A DNA stretch of 64,000 nucleotides, from assembly GCA_964595645.1 (NCBI GenBank), contig CAZQQT010000002.1, positions 64,001-128,000 on the forward strand. The letters run 5' to 3'. Position numbers and translations under genes: made by a program. The DNA comes from an uncultured Thermococci archaeon (lineage in GTDB: Archaea > Methanobacteriota_B > Thermococci > Methanofastidiosales > B48-G16). Within the stretch, counting starts at the first letter, position 1; each line of letters begins with the position of its first letter. Below, one piece after another: positions 790 through 27,674 of the stretch. The notes below the pieces were generated by a model. That model did no database searches and was not told where the DNA came from. It saw nothing but the letters and a program-made list of their open reading frames with translations.

Positions 790-2313
790 TCATTTTTCTA
801 GCACTTCTTGAAGAACTTTCCCATCCATATCTTTTGGTGGTTCAATATTCATGAGAGAAAGGATAGTAGGCGCTAAATCAATAATTTCAACGTTTTTTAC
901 TACATTTCCCCTTTTTATTCCATTGCCATATATAATGAATGTACCATAGAGCCTATGTTCTCCCGATTTCAATGTCTTAGGATCAGAAAAAATGTTTCCC
1001 GACGGAAACGCAAATGTCATAGAACTTGCATAAGAGAAGTTCTTCATCGAAAAGCTTATATCAGGTAAAAGATTTGTTTTTTTCCCTTTGTATATATCTT
1101 CTTTAAACCAGATCTCATCCACTACTTTTTCATCAGTTTCAGGATCTTTTAGTTCTTGAAGCTGTTCATTTATTTCCTTTCTTACCAAATCATGCTCATT
1201 TTTATTTTTAGTAATTTTAAGATTCTCTTTATTCAAAAATATTGAGCCATAATATCCAAATGAGTATGCCTTTGTTTTTTTCCAGTTTATATCCTTCCAT
1301 GTATAACTTGTAGCATCCAAAACTTTTTTCTTTAGATCAAAAGGCAATATATCCGATAATTTAGCTCCACCTATCTTTAAAGCAATTTTTATCAATCTAT
1401 CAGTATCTATTCCGAGAGAAATTAAAATTTTTTTCATTTTGGCAGAGTGCGATGTTTTTATTTTAAGATACTCTTTTTGTTTTAACCATTCATTGATATT
1501 CACATCTTTAAGATACTTTCCAAACCCGTGATCGGACATGATAATTATCACTGTTTCTTCTGGCATATAATCCATCATTCTTCCTAAAATACCATCTATT
1601 TTTGAATAGACATTGTATATAGCACTAGAAAACGTTTCATGGTCTTCGTACTGAGGGTGTGTCTCGTCCATGTATTTCCAGTACCAATGTTGCATATGGT
1701 CTGCCCCCATGAAAGTTACCATAAAAAAATCCCAATTTTCTTTTTTGTAGAGGTATTCAGCTATATTTCCGTGAAGATCAGTTAATTCTAATATATCGTT
1801 CATATAAGATTCTCTATCTTTATTTCTATCGCTGTATCTTGTTTTTTCTGTCAGTCGAAATCTAGGAAATTTTTTTATAAGCTCATTCTTCAATTTCACT
1901 GGATATGTAAAATTATTTTCAAGGGAAGGAGTCATAAACCCAGAGATTAGATATCCATTAACTTTTTCTGGGGGATATGTAAAAGGAACGTTCATTACAC
2001 AGCATTTTTTTCCATGATCGGACAAAATTTTCCAGATGGCTTTCTCTGTTCTGTGCTCTCCCCAATTAATATCTAGCTCATATTTTTCATTAAGTTTATA
2101 AAAACTAAATTGACCGTGTTTTCCAGGATTTTTTCCTGTCATGAAAGAAGACCACGCACAGGGAGTAAGAGGGGGAATGGTAGATTTCATTTTCCCCCAC
2201 GATCCCTCCTTTAGAAGCTTTTGAAAATGAGGAAGTTTATCTCTCTCAGTCCATCTTCGGATTAACTCTAACTCTGCACCATCTATACCTAAAATGAATA
2301 CTTTTCTTTTCAT
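790..2313 (-). CDS. Alkaline phosphatase superfamily protein (COG3379, type I phosphodiesterase/nucleotide pyrophosphatase-like)
   Basis: ILGIDGA, STIPPLTPCAWSSFMTGKNPGKHG (Thr nucleophile region), DHMQH, MSDHGF, SGEH, DLAPTIL. Confidence 0.9.
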   Translation of the reverse strand: MKRKVFILGIDGAELELIRRWTERDKLPHFQKLLKEGSWGKMKSTIPPLTPCAWSSFMTGKNPGKHGQFSFYKLNEKYELDINWGEHRTEKAIWKILSDHGKKCCVMNVPFTYPPEKVNGYLISGFMTPSLENNFTYPVKLKNELIKKFPRFRLTEKTRYSDRNKDRESYMNDILELTDLHGNIAEYLYKKENWDFFMVTFMGADHMQHWYWKYMDETHPQYEDHETFSSAIYNVYSKIDGILGRMMDYMPEETVIIIMSDHGFGKYLKDVNINEWLKQKEYLKIKTSHSAKMKKILISLGIDTDRLIKIALKIGGAKLSDILPFDLKKKVLDATSYTWKDINWKKTKAYSFGYYGSIFLNKENLKITKNKNEHDLVRKEINEQLQELKDPETDEKVVDEIWFKEDIYKGKKTNLLPDISFSMKNFSYASSMTFAFPSGNIFSDPKTLKSGEHRLYGTFIIYGNGIKRGNVVKNVEIIDLAPTILSLMNIEPPKDMDGKVLQEVLEK

Positions 2314-2340
2314 TTAATTTCACTCTTACATTTGCGTTGA

Positions 2341-3894
2341 TCAAACTGTATTTCGAATATGACTATTTATCTTCAACTTATAAAAAGGAAATTCTTCTAT
2401 ATCTATTAACGTAATATCATGTTTAACAAGTTCTTTAGTTAAATTTTCCAGATTTTCAGAAAAATATATAGTATATCCGTCTTTTTTCAATAAATTTATT
2501 ACCCTGAGAAGTTCATCAATATCTCTTTTTCCGTTCTCAAAATCTTGACAAAGAAAAATAGGCCTTGCATCTATTATGATTTTATCACTCATTTTTACCA
2601 AAAATACACTTTTTTCATGTGTATTTTTTATCTTCAATTTCGTTTCTTGGGCTTCATTCATATAAGTTTTAATGTCTACTATCCCTCTAGTACCTGTATC
2701 GAAAGAGAATAAAAAAATAAATACTATTAAAACAGTAATTAGTGGTATTCTTATATACTTTCTTTTTTTAAATAAATAATAGAAGGCATAAGAAGTTCCT
2801 ATTACTAGTAAAACATGTATAGGAAGAAAATACCTCGAATAAGAGGATTGAATAGCGGTAGTACCAAATCCACAACCACCAGATGTTCTACCATGGATTA
2901 AAAATAGATATACGCTCAATAAGATGAGACTTAATATCCATAACCTTAGATATTTTCTCTTTAGGACGATACTAAAAATACCTAACACACCAATCGAGGA
3001 GATAATTGGACAGTATTTTAAAAAATATGTAGTAAAGTTTGTCATCATTGGTTCTAATCGGATTTTTGGGATCATGAACGTTTTTGCCAAGCTTTTTTCA
3101 TGTGACAAACTGAAGTTTGTGGTTCTCCCCGTTTCTACAAAAGAACCAAATATTTCTCTATAAATACCTAAATAAAGGAGTACTAAAAGGAAAACTGTTG
3201 CGCTAATCACGATCACTGCTTTATAATTTAAAAATTTTTTGAAATGGACCAATGTTGGAAAGAGAAAGGACAGACCTGCAATTATAAGAGGCGTTCGTAT
3301 CACTACCGTAAGAGTAAAAAATACCATGCTTAGTACTAAATATCTTAATTTATTATCTTTTAGAAATCTATTAAAACAGAAGAGAGCGCCAAACCAGAAA
3401 GATATAGCGGGGATGATGTCCATGTGCACTTGGGAATACAACATGTAGGAAGGGAAGATTCCTAACAATAATGTTCCAATTATACCAATTTTTTCTGTAA
3501 AAAGGTCTTTTAGAAACATATAGAAGAACACCAATCCCATAAAAGAAATCATAGGGATTAAGAACATATTAAACGAAAAAATGAATGATAGAGATGACAA
3601 AATAGAGAAATATACAGAATATTTTGTTATATATGTATTTTTCCGAGTTTCTAACATCCCTCTAGGATGAAAATACGATGTAGCATACTTTTCATTCAAT
3701 TCCGAACTCCAGAAAATTTCACCGTTTTGTTCTATGTTTTTTGCTGTAAAAATTAAGCTACTCTCATCGGGATTAAAGGAAACGGAGTTGTCCATATTTA
3801 AAGGCGAACGAATTGTTGTATAGAAAAATAGTGTATATATTATTACAATACTGAAGAAAAGTATCCTTTGGTCAATTTTCAAGTTCTTAAACAT
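2341..3894 (-). CDS. Multi-pass GT-C-like glycosyltransferase (PMT/ArnT-like)
   Basis: About 11 hydrophobic segments, PDE motif after TM1, RYFLP motif, glycan-locus context. Confidence 0.65.
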   Translation of the reverse strand: MFKNLKIDQRILFFSIVIIYTLFFYTTIRSPLNMDNSVSFNPDESSLIFTAKNIEQNGEIFWSSELNEKYATSYFHPRGMLETRKNTYITKYSVYFSILSSLSFIFSFNMFLIPMISFMGLVFFYMFLKDLFTEKIGIIGTLLLGIFPSYMLYSQVHMDIIPAISFWFGALFCFNRFLKDNKLRYLVLSMVFFTLTVVIRTPLIIAGLSFLFPTLVHFKKFLNYKAVIVISATVFLLVLLYLGIYREIFGSFVETGRTTNFSLSHEKSLAKTFMIPKIRLEPMMTNFTTYFLKYCPIISSIGVLGIFSIVLKRKYLRLWILSLILLSVYLFLIHGRTSGGCGFGTTAIQSSYSRYFLPIHVLLVIGTSYAFYYLFKKRKYIRIPLITVLIVFIFLFSFDTGTRGIVDIKTYMNEAQETKLKIKNTHEKSVFLVKMSDKIIIDARPIFLCQDFENGKRDIDELLRVINLLKKDGYTIYFSENLENLTKELVKHDITLIDIEEFPFYKLKINSHIRNTV

Positions 3895-6479: not shown

Positions 6480-7414
6480 TATTTTCTCCCTTTTAACTTA
6501 TATAAAATCTCTTCTTGGAGCTCACGGTGAGTTCTTAACATATCTGCGAGCAGCCCGAAGATCATAAACTGCACTCCTACAAAGATGAAGAGAAGAGTGA
6601 GTAGTCCTCTTCCAGTATATCCTGCGAATGTACCTTTAATAAGATAATTCCTGAGAACCGCAAATCCTGGGATAAAACTGAGAAAGATAAATACAATACC
6701 CAATCCTGTGAAAACTTTTACTGGATTGTAGTCTCTATATGTCCTAAGGATTGTAACGGCGGCATTTTTAGCGTAGTGAAACACATTTGGTATTAGTCGC
6801 GATTTTCCTTCTCGTTTGCGGAAAGTCACTGGTACTTCTTTGATTTTGAGATTTTTGTGTGCCGCTTGGATGATTGTCTCCTGTACATACGTGTACCCTC
6901 CAAGAATATTTATTTTCAACGCTGCTTCCCGGGAAAATGCGCGGAATCCTGTTTGAGCATCTTTCACCGGATATCCTGCTACTCTTCGGGTGATCCATGT
7001 GGCAATTTTGTTTCCCTGCCTTTTTTGCCATGGCATGTGATCGAGTTCATTGATTTGTCTAGTTCCCAACACGATATCTGCCGTTCCATTGAGGATTGGA
7101 GCAATAAGCAGTGGCATTTCATGGGGATCATACTGCCCATCAGCATCAATATTGACAAAAATATCCGCATTCATTCCCAATGCTTCACTCATTCCTCTTT
7201 TGAACGTTTGTGCCAGCCCAAGGTTCTTTTTGTTGGAGAATACGTGATCTGCTCCTGCTAGTTTCGCCTGTTCCACAGTGTTATCGTTGGAACCGTCATC
7301 TATTACTATCACCTGAATCTCATCTATTCCTTCTATACTTTGAGGTATTTCCTCTATCACAGTACCAATATTCTGTTCCTCGTTGTACGCGGGAATCATT
7401 ATAACTAGTTTCAT
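6479..7414 (-). CDS. GT2 polyprenol-phosphate glycosyltransferase (DPM1-like, two C-terminal TMs)
   Basis: IPAYNEE, DDGS, IDADGQY, DAQTGFRA. Confidence 0.9.
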   Translation of the reverse strand: MKLVIMIPAYNEEQNIGTVIEEIPQSIEGIDEIQVIVIDDGSNDNTVEQAKLAGADHVFSNKKNLGLAQTFKRGMSEALGMNADIFVNIDADGQYDPHEMPLLIAPILNGTADIVLGTRQINELDHMPWQKRQGNKIATWITRRVAGYPVKDAQTGFRAFSREAALKINILGGYTYVQETIIQAAHKNLKIKEVPVTFRKREGKSRLIPNVFHYAKNAAVTILRTYRDYNPVKVFTGLGIVFIFLSFIPGFAVLRNYLIKGTFAGYTGRGLLTLLFIFVGVQFMIFGLLADMLRTHRELQEEILYKLKGRK

Positions 7415-22681: not shown

Positions 22682-23521
22682 ATGCTGAGAAAAAGCACTG
22701 TAGCTGGTAGATTTTACCCATCCAATCCGGATAGATTGAAAGGTCAAATACGAGATTTTTTCGATGAAAAACCAAAAATAAAGAGTTACACGGGAAAAAT
22801 AGGCGTGCTATCCCCTCACGCAGGATACGCATTTTCTGGAAAAACGGCAAGTTACAGCTACAAAGCGCTTGCCGAAACGTTTCCTGAAACCGTTATCATC
22901 ATCGGTCCTAACCATACAGGGATGGGATCGCCGCTGGCTATGATGACGAAGGGAGCGTGGGAAACACCGCTGGGAAATGTGGAGATCGACTCACAGCTCG
23001 CGGACACACTCCTCGATGAATGTGAGGTGCTGGACGCCGATGACACAGCCCACAGACACGAGCACTCAATCGAGGTACAGCTTCCCTTTCTTCAGTACCT
23101 CTCACCCGATATACAGTTCGTTCCTATCTCCATGAGCATGCAGGATCAGGATACCGCACAGGAACTCGGAGAGGCCATCGCTTATGTGATAGAGGATGAG
23201 AAAGTGGGAATCATCGCGAGCAGCGATCTCATGCACTACGGTCGGAGTTACGGTTACGTTCCGTTCAGGAATAACGTGATTGAACAGATGAAGGACATGG
23301 ATCTCACCGCATTGAACGCAGTAGTGGATCGTGCGCCGGAAGCGTTGTACGAACTCGCAGATAAAGGCTACACGATGTGCGGATACGGCTGTGTGTCCGC
23401 CATGATCTACGCGTTAGAGGAGTATGTAACGGAAGGCGAGATCCTCGATTACTCTACCTCCTCCGAGGTTTCTGGAGATACGAGTACTGTGGTGGGCTAC
23501 GGTTCTGTTGTCTTACAATAA
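22682..23521 (+). CDS. amrB: AmmeMemoRadiSam system protein B (MEMO1 family)
   Basis: VAGRFYP, PHAGY, GPNHTG, EHSIEVQLPF, ASSDLMHY, MCG. Confidence 0.95.
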   Translation: MLRKSTVAGRFYPSNPDRLKGQIRDFFDEKPKIKSYTGKIGVLSPHAGYAFSGKTASYSYKALAETFPETVIIIGPNHTGMGSPLAMMTKGAWETPLGNVEIDSQLADTLLDECEVLDADDTAHRHEHSIEVQLPFLQYLSPDIQFVPISMSMQDQDTAQELGEAIAYVIEDEKVGIIASSDLMHYGRSYGYVPFRNNVIEQMKDMDLTALNAVVDRAPEALYELADKGYTMCGYGCVSAMIYALEEYVTEGEILDYSTSSEVSGDTSTVVGYGSVVLQ

Positions 23522-23573: not shown

Positions 23574-24500
23574 ATGGGTTTTGGAAAAGGATACGGAAAA
23601 GTAATTCTGTTTAATGAACATTTTGTTGTACACGGTGTTCCGGCAATCGCCTCTGCCATCGGTCTGACAACAGATGCAGATGTGACCACACACAGCGGAA
23701 AGGGTATTAAACTGATCGATAATAGAAAAGGAACAGAGGGATACACTGAAGAGAAACATGAGCACCAGATGGAAGCGTTAAAAAGAGTAACGGAGTATAT
23801 GAACTTTGATCCAGAGGAAAATCCGATTAAAATAACACTTGGAGGAGATCTCCCCACATTTTCTGGTATTGGTGCGAGTGCTGCAAATCTAGTTGCCATT
23901 GTGCGAGGAATCAACGATGAGTTCAACTTAGGATTCTCTGATGAAGAGGTAAATAAAGCCGCATATGAGGGGGAACGAGCATTCGCAGGCACACCCTCTG
24001 GTATCGATAACACCGCGGCCACGTTTGGAGGGCTTATCTGGTTCAAGAGAGGAGAAAAGAATGTGATAGAGAGACTCAACATTAAAAAGCCGGTAGAGAT
24101 CGTCATGGGGAATACCGGTGTAGTGGCAAATACAAAGGAGGTTGTTGCCGGTGTGAGAGAGAGGAAGGAGAAATACCCGGACAAATATAACAAAATATTC
24201 AACGATGCAGAAAAACTCGTGTATAAAGCGCGAGACGCACTTATGGACTACGATCTGGAGCGCGTCGGAAAGTTCATGAATGAGAATCATACACAGCTTC
24301 AGGATATAGAAGTCGATGGAGAGGAGCTTAACTTCCTCGTTGATCTTGCCCGGAACAATGGCGCCCTCGGTGCAAAGCTCACAGGAGGAGGCGTCGGCGG
24401 CTGTATGGTCGCGTTGACCCCCGGTAAGAAACTCCAGGAGACCGTTGCATCTGCGATGGAAGAGGAAGGATTCCAGGTATTAAGAACACAGATACGGTGA
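23574..24500 (+). CDS. mvk: Mevalonate kinase
   Basis: GKVILFNEHFVVHG, PTFSGIGASAA, PSGIDN, GAKLTGGGVGG. Confidence 0.93.
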   Translation: MGFGKGYGKVILFNEHFVVHGVPAIASAIGLTTDADVTTHSGKGIKLIDNRKGTEGYTEEKHEHQMEALKRVTEYMNFDPEENPIKITLGGDLPTFSGIGASAANLVAIVRGINDEFNLGFSDEEVNKAAYEGERAFAGTPSGIDNTAATFGGLIWFKRGEKNVIERLNIKKPVEIVMGNTGVVANTKEVVAGVRERKEKYPDKYNKIFNDAEKLVYKARDALMDYDLERVGKFMNENHTQLQDIEVDGEELNFLVDLARNNGALGAKLTGGGVGGCMVALTPGKKLQETVASAMEEEGFQVLRTQIR

Positions 24501-24504
24501 TCCC

Positions 24505-25815
24505 ATGAATCTGCGCGATTTTCTCACGACGTTGGAGAAGGAAGGAACACTTTCCCGGATTACGAAGGAGGTCTCCATACACCATGAGATAGCAAATATA
24601 CTCTACTCTCTCAACGAGAAACCTACACTCTTTGAAAACGTTGAGGGATACGAATTTCCGGTGTTTGGGGGGATCACATCGGATAGAGATATAATCGCAA
24701 AGGCACTGGGAACTACAAAGGACCAACTGCTTTTCAAACTTGTTGATGCTCTTCGACACCCAAAAAAGCCGGAAATGGTAGAAAATGCCCCCTGCCAAGA
24801 GGAAATTGTTCGGGATCCGGATCTCGATACACTTCCCATACTCCACCATCTCCCTGGCGATGGCGGGAGGTATACCTCGGCCTCTGTGGCTATCATAAAG
24901 GATCCAGAGACGGGCAGAAACGCCTGTTACCATCGGATGATGCAGGTAGGGAAAGATAGGTTCACGGCACGACTGATCAAAAAGAGGCAGACGAGAACTA
25001 CCTACGATAACACAGAGGGAGAACTGGAGATGGCTGTCTGTCTCGGAAACTCGGTCCCTGTGATGGTGGCTGCTTCGCTCGGTCCTCCACCGGGTGTCGA
25101 CGAGTTGTCCCTTGCCAACGCCCTTGATGAGACGCCGCTCGTGAAATGTGTCACAAAGGATCTGGAGGTCCCCGCAGAATCCGAGTTCGTACTTGAAGGA
25201 AGAATCACACGAGAGTTAGATCGTGAGGGTCCCTTTGTTGATCTCACAGAGACACGAGATTTTGAACGGCAGGAACCGGTCTTCGTCGTTGACTGCATCA
25301 CCCACAGGAAGGATGCCATGTACCAGGCACTGCTTCCTGGACGACGTGAGCACAAGATGCTCATGGGCATGCCCAAAGAGCCTACGATATATGACGAGGT
25401 AAGCAAGGTAGTGACCTGTAACAATGTACTCGTCACCATGGGAGGCGGCTCGTGGTTACATGGCGTTGTTCAGATAGAAAAAGAAACCGAGGAGGACCCT
25501 AAAAAAGCGATAGAGGCAGCATTTAGAGGACATGGAAGTATGAAGCACGTCATCATTGTTGAGGAGGATGTGGATATATACGATCCGAATGCACTGGAAT
25601 GGGCAATCGCCACACGATTCCAAGCAGATAAGGATCTCTATATATACCCAGATCAGCCGGGGAGCTCCTTGGATCCTTCCGGAAAGCATGTGCCCGGGAA
25701 AAAGACGAGAACGACAAAGGTTGGCGTCGATGCCACGATACCGCCTGATGTCGATCCGAGTAATTATGAACGGGTGAGTTATACAAAGGTCGATCTCGAT
25801 GATTACCTCGGGTGA
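24505..25815 (+). CDS. UbiD-family decarboxylase; probable trans-anhydromevalonate 5-phosphate decarboxylase (AMPD)
   Basis: YHRM, EGPFVD, WAIATRFQAD, SSLDPS, KVGVDAT; context with mvk and the aconitase X pair. Confidence 0.9.
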   Translation: MNLRDFLTTLEKEGTLSRITKEVSIHHEIANILYSLNEKPTLFENVEGYEFPVFGGITSDRDIIAKALGTTKDQLLFKLVDALRHPKKPEMVENAPCQEEIVRDPDLDTLPILHHLPGDGGRYTSASVAIIKDPETGRNACYHRMMQVGKDRFTARLIKKRQTRTTYDNTEGELEMAVCLGNSVPVMVAASLGPPPGVDELSLANALDETPLVKCVTKDLEVPAESEFVLEGRITRELDREGPFVDLTETRDFERQEPVFVVDCITHRKDAMYQALLPGRREHKMLMGMPKEPTIYDEVSKVVTCNNVLVTMGGGSWLHGVVQIEKETEEDPKKAIEAAFRGHGSMKHVIIVEEDVDIYDPNALEWAIATRFQADKDLYIYPDQPGSSLDPSGKHVPGKKTRTTKVGVDATIPPDVDPSNYERVSYTKVDLDDYLG

Positions 25816-26116
25816 GGGAAAGTACGCAGTATGGCTTGAAGAGAAAAAGATCGGGAAGGATAGAGTGTATCTCTTAGGGGGAGGAGAAAAATCCCACATA
25901 GGAGGAGTCGTGATCTGCAGACCAAACGAGCAACCGCAGGTCATCGGACTGGAGGGGCACCGTGACACCGTTGTACTCACACCGATCGCTGAGAGAGCAT
26001 CGAAGAAGTACGGTACAACGGCAGTCGCGATTGGGGGAGTGCATATAGATAATGCGAAAAAAGAGGAGATAGAGAAGATTGTAAAGAATTGTAGGAGCAT
26101 GATATCATGTATCTGA
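25799..26116 (+). CDS. LpdD-like prenylated-FMN chaperone / PAC-fold protein
   Basis: IGKD-x4-LGGGEKSHIGGV, GHRD, GGVHIDNAKKEEI pattern; overlaps both neighbours. Confidence 0.7.
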   Translation: MITSGEGKYAVWLEEKKIGKDRVYLLGGGEKSHIGGVVICRPNEQPQVIGLEGHRDTVVLTPIAERASKKYGTTAVAIGGVHIDNAKKEEIEKIVKNCRSMISCI

Positions 26117-27291
26117 CAAAGGAAGAGGAAGCCATTTTGAATGGTGAGAAAGGAGAAGCGTATGAGAAGCTATTCCGTCTGCTTGTACGACTTGGCGATA
26201 TCTACGGAGCAGACAAGATGATTCCTGTAGGATCCGTGCAGGTGGCAGGAGTCTCGTATAAATCCATTGGAGACCCCGGAAGGGATTTTCTTGAGGATTT
26301 TGCGAAGAAGGGAGCAAAGGCAAAGGTGTTAACATTTTTAAATCCCGCCGGCATGGACATGGAAAACTGGAAAGAGATAGGATTCCCAGAGAAGTTTGCT
26401 GAAAGCCAGATGAGGATCATCAACGCGTTCAAAAAGATGGGAATCGTTGTGACAGCGACGTGCACGCCGTACCTTGCCGGAAACTTACCACGGTTTAGAG
26501 AGCATATTGCATGGTCGGAGTCCTCGGCAGTCTCCTTTGCAAACTCTGTGATCGGTGCGAGAACAAACAGAGAAGGGGGACCATCCGCGCTAGCCGCATC
26601 CCTCTGTGGTGTGACACCGAACTACGGACTGCACCTCGATGAGAACCGATCCCCTAATATGGTGATTCACGTCGATGCAGAGCTTACCACGAGCTCAGAT
26701 TTCGGTGCGTTGGGATATCACGTTGGAAAAATTGTAGAGGATAAAATTCCATATTATACAGGAATCAATGATGCAAATACAGATAATTTAAAAGCACTGG
26801 GTGCTGCAATGGCAGCATCGGGAGCCGTGGCACTGTACCATGCAGAGGGTCTCACACCTGAAGCACATCTCATGGATCCAGAAGGATTAGAGACTATCGA
26901 GGTCACGGAGAACGACCTGAAGGAGACCTATGAGGAGGTAACTACTGGTAAAGATCCAGATATCGTGATTCTCGGATGTCCTCACGCGTCTCTCCGCGAG
27001 ATTGCAGAGGTAGCTGGGAAGCTTCACGGGAAAAAACTCTCAAAGCCTCTCTGGATATGCACCTCAAAAACCATGAAAGAGACGGCAACAGCGATGGGCT
27101 ATACAGAAACAATTGAGAAGGCAGGAGGACGAGTTGTGGCAGATACGTGTATGGTCGTGTCACCAATCGAACAGATGGGATACAAAACCACAGCTGTGAA
27201 CTCGGGGAAGGCGGCGAACTATCTCCCTGGATTCTGTAACCAGAAGGTAGTTTTTAATCACATCGATAAGCTCATAGAGGAGGCGATCTGA
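26107..27291 (+). CDS. Aconitase X catalytic subunit; phosphomevalonate dehydratase large subunit
   Basis: MYLTKEEE, GVSYKSIG, TCTPY, WSESSAV, GARTNREG, GCPHAS, DTCMVV, NSGK. Confidence 0.93.
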   Translation: MYLTKEEEAILNGEKGEAYEKLFRLLVRLGDIYGADKMIPVGSVQVAGVSYKSIGDPGRDFLEDFAKKGAKAKVLTFLNPAGMDMENWKEIGFPEKFAESQMRIINAFKKMGIVVTATCTPYLAGNLPRFREHIAWSESSAVSFANSVIGARTNREGGPSALAASLCGVTPNYGLHLDENRSPNMVIHVDAELTTSSDFGALGYHVGKIVEDKIPYYTGINDANTDNLKALGAAMAASGAVALYHAEGLTPEAHLMDPEGLETIEVTENDLKETYEEVTTGKDPDIVILGCPHASLREIAEVAGKLHGKKLSKPLWICTSKTMKETATAMGYTETIEKAGGRVVADTCMVVSPIEQMGYKTTAVNSGKAANYLPGFCNQKVVFNHIDKLIEEAI

Positions 27292-27674
27292 TGAAAGGAA
27301 GAATGATCAATCCTGGAACTACAGAAGGTGAGGCGATTGTCTCACGAGAACCCATTGGATTTTATGGTGGAATCGATGCAAAAACGGGAATTGTCATAGA
27401 AAAAGGCCATGAACTCGAAGGAGAGTCTGTGAAGGATAAAATATTGGTATTCCCCCGTGGGAAGGGATCCACCGTTGGATCGTATGTCATATACGGGTTA
27501 AAGATGAACGGCGTCGCGCCGAAGGCAATCATCAACGAGGAGACAGAGACCATCGTTGCCACCGGTGCGATACTTGCTGGTATCCCGTGTGTCGATGGGA
27601 TCGATATCAGTGATATCACCACGGGAGAAACACTGAAGGTGGATGCAGACAACGGGACCGTAGAGAAGCGTTAG
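27291..27674 (+). CDS. Aconitase X swivel subunit (DUF126); phosphomevalonate dehydratase small subunit
   Basis: FYGGID, GKGSTVGSY. Confidence 0.93.
   Translation: MKGRMINPGTTEGEAIVSREPIGFYGGIDAKTGIVIEKGHELEGESVKDKILVFPRGKGSTVGSYVIYGLKMNGVAPKAIINEETETIVATGAILAGIPCVDGIDISDITTGETLKVDADNGTVEKR

Follow-up and report, generated by a model that had tools for sequence, protein, structure and literature searches.

An LpdD-family gene between ubiD and acnX in an archaeal mevalonate operon, a probable prenylated FMN chaperone for the adjoining decarboxylase

The window analyzed here, a 64,000-nucleotide stretch of contig CAZQQT010000002.1 from an uncultured Thermococci archaeon (GenBank assembly GCA_964595645.1; source genome of 1.97 Mb, 99.96% complete), carries a short gene wedged between those for a UbiD-family decarboxylase and the large subunit of an AcnX-type phosphomevalonate dehydratase. 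An earlier note, made from the letters alone, had proposed that this 105-residue open reading frame (ORF) encodes a protein resembling LpdD, a chaperone of prenylated FMN (prFMN), and that it sits inside the archaeal mevalonate operon. We confirm the ORF, with an ATG start and overlaps with the genes on both sides, and Pfam and TIGRFAM profile matches assign its neighbors as the note had named them, i.e., mvk, ubiD, and the genes for the large and swivel subunits of AcnX, as follows.

22682-23521, plus strand: Memo-like gene, probably the first gene of the operon (Pfam Memo, E value of 2.3e-81).
23574-24500, plus strand: mvk, mevalonate kinase (TIGR00549, 234 bits against a cutoff of 163; GHMP kinase N- and C-terminal domains).
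24505-25815, plus strand: ubiD-family decarboxylase, read as anhydromevalonate phosphate decarboxylase (AMPD), the decarboxylase of the archaeal mevalonate route (UbiD_N, UbiD, and UbiD_C; TIGR00148, 357 bits).
25799-26116, plus strand: LpdD-family (PF21758) protein of 105 residues, with a candidate metal triad at H33/H54/D56.
26107-27291, plus strand: acnX-L, large subunit of phosphomevalonate dehydratase (Pfam AcnX, E value of 1.7e-163, 544 bits).
27291-27674, plus strand: acnX-S, swivel subunit (AcnX_swivel_put, E value of 5.5e-35; PRK03955, 180.9 bits).

The 105-residue gene, from its ATG on, shares 17 nucleotides (nt) with the 3' end of ubiD and, up to its TGA, 10 nt with acnX-L, which has its own ATG at 26107; the stop of acnX-L and the start of acnX-S overlap as TGATG, and only 4 nt separate the end of mvk from the start of ubiD. 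The Memo-like gene ends 52 nt before mvk, which is preceded by a GGAGG ribosome-binding site. Because of these overlapping or nearly abutting junctions, the six genes (Memo-mvk-ubiD-X-acnXL-acnXS, where X is the 105-residue gene) look like a single translationally coupled operon. A Memo-like gene also recurs upstream of mvk or ubiX at three loci from distant archaeal lineages (L011, L044, and L078).

The 105-residue protein matches PF21758 (PAC_bac, named LpdD_chaperone in a newer Pfam release) and no other Pfam family, with an E value of 6.4e-25 and 87.5 bits (cutoff of 27), its residues 6 to 103 corresponding to positions 2 to 108 of the 115-position profile. LpdD itself (lp_0272 of Lactiplantibacillus plantarum; PDB accession numbers 8PO5, 8PZO, 8PZH, and 8P4W) is a chaperone of the gallate decarboxylase LpdC that binds prFMN only in its reduced form (prFMNH2) and helps activate UbiD enzymes, and at a conserved site on its surface, Mn2+ is liganded by H35, H61, and D63 (PMC10865409). 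The top solved structures retrieved with phmmer are four LpdD entries (E value of about 0.02), in whose alignment the GGxxxHIG and HxD motifs of LpdD fall on H33 and H54-x-D56 of the query, pairing H35/H61/D63 with H33/H54/D56. The three motifs on which the original comparison with LpdD was based (GGG-EK-SHIG, GHRD, and GGVHIDNA-KK-EEI) are all present. When 86 diverse relatives are aligned, G29, G35, and G80 do not vary, and conservation reaches at least 90% at G28, H33, H54, H82, and I91.

An AlphaFold2 model built from the same 86-relative alignment (mean pLDDT of 97.5; pTM of 0.89) leads to the same family by another path. The six best matches in a Foldseek search of the PDB are all LpdD chains (TM scores of 0.80 to 0.88; root mean square deviation [rmsd] of 1.9 to 3.0 Å), and the LpdD crystal structures superpose on the model at TM scores of 0.87 to 0.88. 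Far behind follow the proteasome assembly chaperones PAC3, PAC4, and Pba3-4 (TM scores of 0.50 to 0.61; rmsd of 4.6 to 5.3 Å; E values of 1e-4 to 4e-3). Since sequence, fold, and metal-ligand residues agree, membership of the LpdD family can be regarded as established by profile and predicted structure, and the likeness first read from motifs is upheld, with PF21758 above its cutoff and LpdD the best match by both sequence and fold. A search of 5.8 billion proteins returned 465 homologs, the best 120 of which are 104 to 107 residues long and 61 to 82% identical to the query, and an exhaustive search of representatives at 50% identity returned 511 clusters at an E value of ≤0.001. The database relatives are all labeled “hypothetical protein,” because NCBIfam has no model for them. 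That the ORF might be a spurious overlapping frame is ruled out by its Pfam score, its 465 homologs, and its conserved position.

A profile search of the whole genome finds exactly one PF21758 gene and exactly one UbiD, and the two are each other's neighbors. The only UbiX of the genome lies on another contig amid unrelated genes, so that ubiX is indeed missing from the window, as the earlier note had observed. There is no diphosphomevalonate decarboxylase (MDD) in the genome, the single match to it being mvk itself, below the cutoff; as the genome further encodes a single AcnX above the cutoff, one UbiD, and, elsewhere, a homolog of isopentenyl phosphate kinase (IPK), the organism thus depends, by its gene content, on the AcnX/UbiD (“archaeal”) mevalonate route. 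By context, the UbiD at 24505-25815 would be AMPD, and since the genome encodes no second UbiD, AMPD is the only possible UbiD client of the 105-residue protein in this genome.

To place the gene in other organisms, we scanned one genome per prokaryotic species for loci similar to the 105-residue protein. This yielded 29 loci, 25 of which are archaeal (in metagenome-assembled genomes [MAGs] labeled Thermoplasmatota, Thermoplasmatales, Methanobacteriota, or Euryarchaeota), and in all 25 the ends of ubiD and X overlap, nearly always in the order mvk-ubiD-X-acnXL-acnXS. More distant relatives, drawn from other assemblies and 33 to 44% identical, occupy the same mvk-ubiD-X-acnXL-acnXS order at one locus and variants of it at others, including mvk-ubiD-X-acnXL-acnXS-ubiX-ipk with the genes for HMG-CoA synthase and reductase divergent from it, ubiX-ubiD-X-acnXL-acnXS-ipk, Memo-(unassigned gene)-mvk-ubiX-ubiD-X-acnXL-acnXS-ipk in a MAG of the Diapherotrites (DPANN), and Memo-ubiX-ubiD-X-(74 residues)-acnXL-acnXS in a metagenomic operon (L044). 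In a Methanosuratincola MAG and on one metagenome contig, the LpdD-like gene is paired with ubiX alone. All six ubiX neighbors that were checked, including the Methanosuratincola copy, score above the TIGR00421 cutoff. The association with AMPD first noticed at this single locus is therefore conserved: across several phyla of archaea, the ubiD-X pair is kept, and the operon often takes in ubiX and ipk as well. The 74-residue ORF between the LpdD-like gene and acnX-L of L044 (5393-5617) has no Pfam match. Apparent in-frame stops in the ubiD of two relatives (a TAA at codon 9 in L020; an alignment running past the true end in L058) were dismissed as trivia of assembly or alignment.

Because the 105-residue gene overlaps acnX-L as well as ubiD, the protein might instead assist the AcnX-type phosphomevalonate dehydratase, for example, by helping to build or shield its [4Fe-4S] cluster, which is sensitive to oxygen, the dehydratase being the oxygen-sensitive step of the pathway (PMC12547664; also the title of PMC10040528). 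Gene order argues otherwise. In five variants (L018, L027, L028, L033, and L044), the LpdD-like gene keeps to ubiD and parts from acnX: a gene for a clostripain-family peptidase is inserted in L033 and displaces acnX, a similar gap is present in L018, and in L028 the operon ends after the LpdD-like gene with no acnX downstream. Moreover, some relatives have ubiX or a bacterial UbiD as partner at loci lacking AcnX, no locus was seen with the gene beside acnX but without ubiD, and operons that have no LpdD-like gene still show high conservation of AcnX. Judged from these variants, a helper of AcnX is very improbable.

We consider the 105-residue protein to be probably an LpdD-family prFMNH2 chaperone that serves the neighboring AMPD. 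Its family, fold, and ligand residues, the gene order, the co-occurrence with one AMPD clade (see below), and the standing of AMPD as the sole UbiD of the genome are shown by the present analysis; that it binds prFMNH2, hands it over to AMPD, and takes any part in oxidative maturation is inferred, along the following lines. UbiX, encoded elsewhere in the genome, would make prFMNH2, and the 105-residue protein would bind the cofactor, which is labile to oxygen, at the face formed by its conserved loops; there, Mn2+ held in the H33/H54/D56 site could lie against the phosphate of the cofactor. Thus bound, prFMNH2 would be shielded from unproductive one-electron oxidation until it is handed to newly made apo-AMPD, helping to form the active holoenzyme. 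The start/stop overlaps with ubiD and acnX-L would have the chaperone made together with its client.

Several lines of evidence weigh against the chaperone reading, beginning with the distribution of the gene. We sampled 301 genomes of Thermoplasmatota and 120 genomes of the window's own phylum: PF21758 is present in 45 of the former and 8 of the latter, versus 276 and 117, respectively, for UbiD. Most AMPD-bearing archaea are without an LpdD-like gene, and the possibility that the protein is a universal companion of AMPD is rejected on these counts. The carriers in the window's phylum belong to one family (f1, 4 of 4 genomes plus that of the window) and to one genus of another (f4, 3 of 3); none of the 88 genomes of the largest family has PF21758. 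Likewise, it occurs in none of the 255 sampled Thermoplasmatota genomes outside the AMPD clade to which the gene is linked.

Within Thermoplasmatota, on the other hand, co-occurrence favors the reading: the UbiD that adjoins the LpdD-like gene is 68 to 80% identical to that of the window in 44 of the 45 carriers, and in the 45th (G233) a UbiD of the carrier type is cut by the start of the contig. A single genome (G187) has a carrier-type UbiD with no PF21758 match, and its contig ends inside ubiD. The best UbiD matches in the remaining genomes have E values of 7e-118 or worse, with 40 to 49% identity among the matches listed. Such weaker UbiDs also occur in mvk-ubiD-acnXL-acnXS operons, where ubiD and acnX-L are only 44 to 128 nt apart (L056 and L064) or about 2 kb apart (L065); in these three Thermoplasmatota loci, the AcnX subunits are 67 to 80% identical to those of the window but the UbiDs only 43 to 45%. 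As these distant UbiDs fill the equivalent operon without PF21758 while AcnX is well conserved, the same operon houses either of two AMPD clades (about 45% identical), of which a single one brings the LpdD-like gene. It seems from these comparisons that the decarboxylase was either exchanged or sharply diverged inside a conserved operon, in step with the presence or absence of the LpdD-like gene. A UbiD tree with 61 rows requires 3 changes of the carrier label, compared with a mean of 19 in shuffles; this tree comes from a quick search for which the LpdD-like gene itself served to collect most of the rows, with close kin included and a bias toward carriers, and it shows only the clustering of carriers, not any order of events. 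Co-occurrence with AMPD, as implied by the earlier note, thus holds in part: the gene keeps company with a single AMPD clade, not with AMPD in general.

Two relatives from the window's order depart from this pattern and count against the reading as well. Their genomes (G020 and G021, 84% and 96% complete, respectively) encode a carrier-type AMPD (72 to 75% identity) and no PF21758 gene anywhere, and a 183-residue UbiX fills the slot between ubiD and acnX-L in place of the LpdD-like gene, as follows.

L066 (G021), 6686-7237: UbiX in the ubiD-acnXL slot (TIGR00421, 199 bits).
L067 (G020), 1921-2475, minus strand: UbiX in the ubiD-acnXL slot (Pfam match only).

In favor of the reading, the filling of the slot by ubiX in these two genomes, and its joining the operon in several lineages, mark the position after ubiD as one of cofactor supply. 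In a control search, PF21758 also scored above its cutoff in Methanosarcina acetivorans, and this copy probably lies away from the genes for AMPD and the large subunit of phosphomevalonate dehydratase (PMDh), given that the corresponding locus tags of Methanosarcina mazei are consecutive (MM_1526 and MM_1525).

The same distribution bears on whether the protein could belong permanently to the AMPDs of this clade as a small subunit, as the small D subunits do in some bacterial UbiD decarboxylases, e.g., VdcCD, instead of carrying the cofactor transiently. The overlap of its start with the ubiD stop suggests cotranslation in fixed proportion, and the AMPD clade that the gene tracks has only about 45% identity to AMPDs without it, while the flanking AcnX subunits are 67 to 80% identical. 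Against a structural part stand the role reported for LpdD, which is in cofactor loading or maturation (PMC10865409), the two genomes just described, which have the same AMPD clade and do without the gene, and those relatives that are paired with ubiX alone. We therefore regard a permanent subunit as unlikely, though it deserves more credence than an AcnX helper.

The breadth of the PF21758 family is a further point against a strict link to prFMN. Although 12 of the 15 distinct PF21758 neighborhood types examined contain ubiD and/or ubiX, some members adjoin or are fused to quite different enzymes. In MAGs of the Jordarchaeales (Asgard), the PF21758 gene follows, after a gap of 6 nt, the gene for a tungstopterin enzyme, aldehyde:ferredoxin oxidoreductase (AFOR); it adjoins a gene for a molybdoenzyme of the xanthine dehydrogenase family in two Clostridia MAGs; and in a bacterial protein of 298 residues (P0152), a class II aldolase/adducin domain is fused to a C-terminal PF21758 domain, a gene for a xylose isomerase-like TIM barrel precedes the fusion gene, and an AFOR gene is 2.4 kb away. 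The coordinates of these genes are as follows.

L048, 4078-6399, and L049, 4069-6399: PF21758 beside AFOR, Jordarchaeales MAGs.
L036, 3051-6375, and L037, 1851-5201: PF21758 beside a xanthine dehydrogenase-family enzyme, Clostridia MAGs.
L040, 2847-3743, and L041, 2971-3867: P0152 fusion gene.

No UbiD or UbiX is encoded near the pterin-enzyme-linked or aldolase-fused members at these loci. Because of such members, the family is not uniformly tied to prFMN, and membership alone is no proof of prFMN binding; there are hints that some of its members handle reduced, phosphorylated heterocyclic cofactors of other kinds. The subfamily of the 105-residue protein is clearly on the UbiD side of PF21758.

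These members, together with the retention here of the residues of the His-His-Asp Mn2+ site of LpdD and with the metal dependence of class II aldolases, lend some weight to a metal-delivery factor or a general chaperone of reduced cofactors, one that is not specific for prFMN and that might bring Mn2+ to AMPD or handle another labile phosphorylated heterocycle. Such a function appears improbable in view of the predominance of ubiD and ubiX among the neighborhood types, the overlap of the 105-residue gene with ubiD in this genome, and the finding that LpdD needs no Mn2+ to bind prFMNH2 and leaves ordinary flavin unbound (PMC10865409). Even for a prFMNH2 chaperone, the precedents are not wholly favorable: LpdD can bind prFMNH2 without an intact metal site (PMC10865409), and the M. 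mazei pathway works in Escherichia coli with AMPD and UbiX alone (PMC12547664).

If the 105-residue protein does act as a prFMNH2 chaperone of AMPD, a more far-reaching scenario can be entertained, although we consider it doubtful as a whole. The carrier AMPD clade may by now have become dependent on the LpdD-like protein, which, by delivering prFMNH2 and enabling oxygen-independent maturation of the cofactor, would be obligatory for isoprenoid lipid synthesis; AMPD and chaperone would have coevolved and moved between phyla as one operon, and AMPDs without an LpdD-like gene would mature on their own. The hosts of the carrier clade are mostly uncultured archaea and are probably anaerobic.

Archaeal membrane lipids are built from precursors that the archaeal mevalonate pathway provides, and the published gene list of this pathway holds no cofactor-handling protein beyond UbiX. 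That the component had not been described, as the earlier note supposed, agrees with the literature that we could search (subscription-only publications aside), in which we found nothing linking LpdD to archaea or to mevalonate: the words “archaea” and “mevalonate” do not occur in the LpdD paper (PMC10865409), neither subject is mentioned in the paper on the UbiD maturase PhdC (PMC13040415), and the available portion of a 2024 survey of archaeal isoprenoid genes names AcnX1/2 and AMPD only for this route, with no occurrence of “UbiD” or “UbiX.” The LpdD family itself is known, and what is new here is probably an LpdD-family chaperone with a client in an essential pathway. If this is true, an accessory component is added to that pathway in several archaeal lineages, and a natural system becomes available for prFMN insertion and maturation in organisms that perhaps never meet oxygen, a question that the authors of the LpdD study explicitly raise (PMC10865409). 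The two AMPD clades, which occupy the same operon with and without the gene, form a ready-made pairing for comparison. The ATP-saving archaeal mevalonate pathway is being engineered into E. coli (PMC12547664), and so small a gene would be a cheap addition to such constructs if activation of AMPD limits flux.

Among known systems, the published archaeal mevalonate set provides the nearest counterpart for the operon as a whole. That of M. mazei comprises AMPD (MM_1526), PMDh (MM_1525/1524), UbiX/PFS (MM_1871), mevalonate kinase (MM_1762), and IPK (MM_1763) (PMC12547664). The operon of the window likewise encodes mevalonate kinase, AMPD, and both PMDh subunits, with IPK and UbiX elsewhere in the genome; it differs in having an LpdD-like component, of which the M. 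mazei set has none (PMC12547664), and, whereas the consecutive tags of AMPD and the PMDh large subunit leave no annotated gene between them in M. mazei, the window has one in that place.

For the 105-residue protein, three comparisons can be made. With PAC3/PAC4 and yeast Pba3-Pba4 (PDB accession numbers 2Z5B, 2Z5C, and 6JPT), it shares the general alpha/beta fold class, a likeness already noted for LpdD (PMC10865409), but the match is weaker, there is no proteasome context, and it is the LpdD family that is characterized by the conserved His and Asp residues of the loops. Like the PhdC/YclD maturases and VdcD-type subunits, it is a small accessory protein encoded next to ubiD or ubiX, a group that promotes formation of active holo-UbiD (PMC13040415; PMC10865409); unlike it, PhdC, a member of the short-chain dimeric flavin reductase family, oxidizes the prFMN radical, so both fold and chemistry differ (PMC13040415). 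LpdD differs in its longer chain (136 to 142 residues in the deposited structures versus 105), in its bacterial rather than archaeal host, in the sequence itself (about 18 to 20% identity in the structural alignment), in its client, an aromatic-acid decarboxylase where ours would be the aliphatic-substrate AMPD of an essential lipid pathway, and in its genetic coupling, since lpdD shares a transcript with lpdB, a homolog of UbiX (PMC10865409), and the archaeal gene is coupled to ubiD and acnX. The two nevertheless have in common PF21758, a fold that superposes at TM scores of 0.87 to 0.88, the His-His-Asp ligands, the glycine-rich loops, and the genetic link to UbiD and UbiX.

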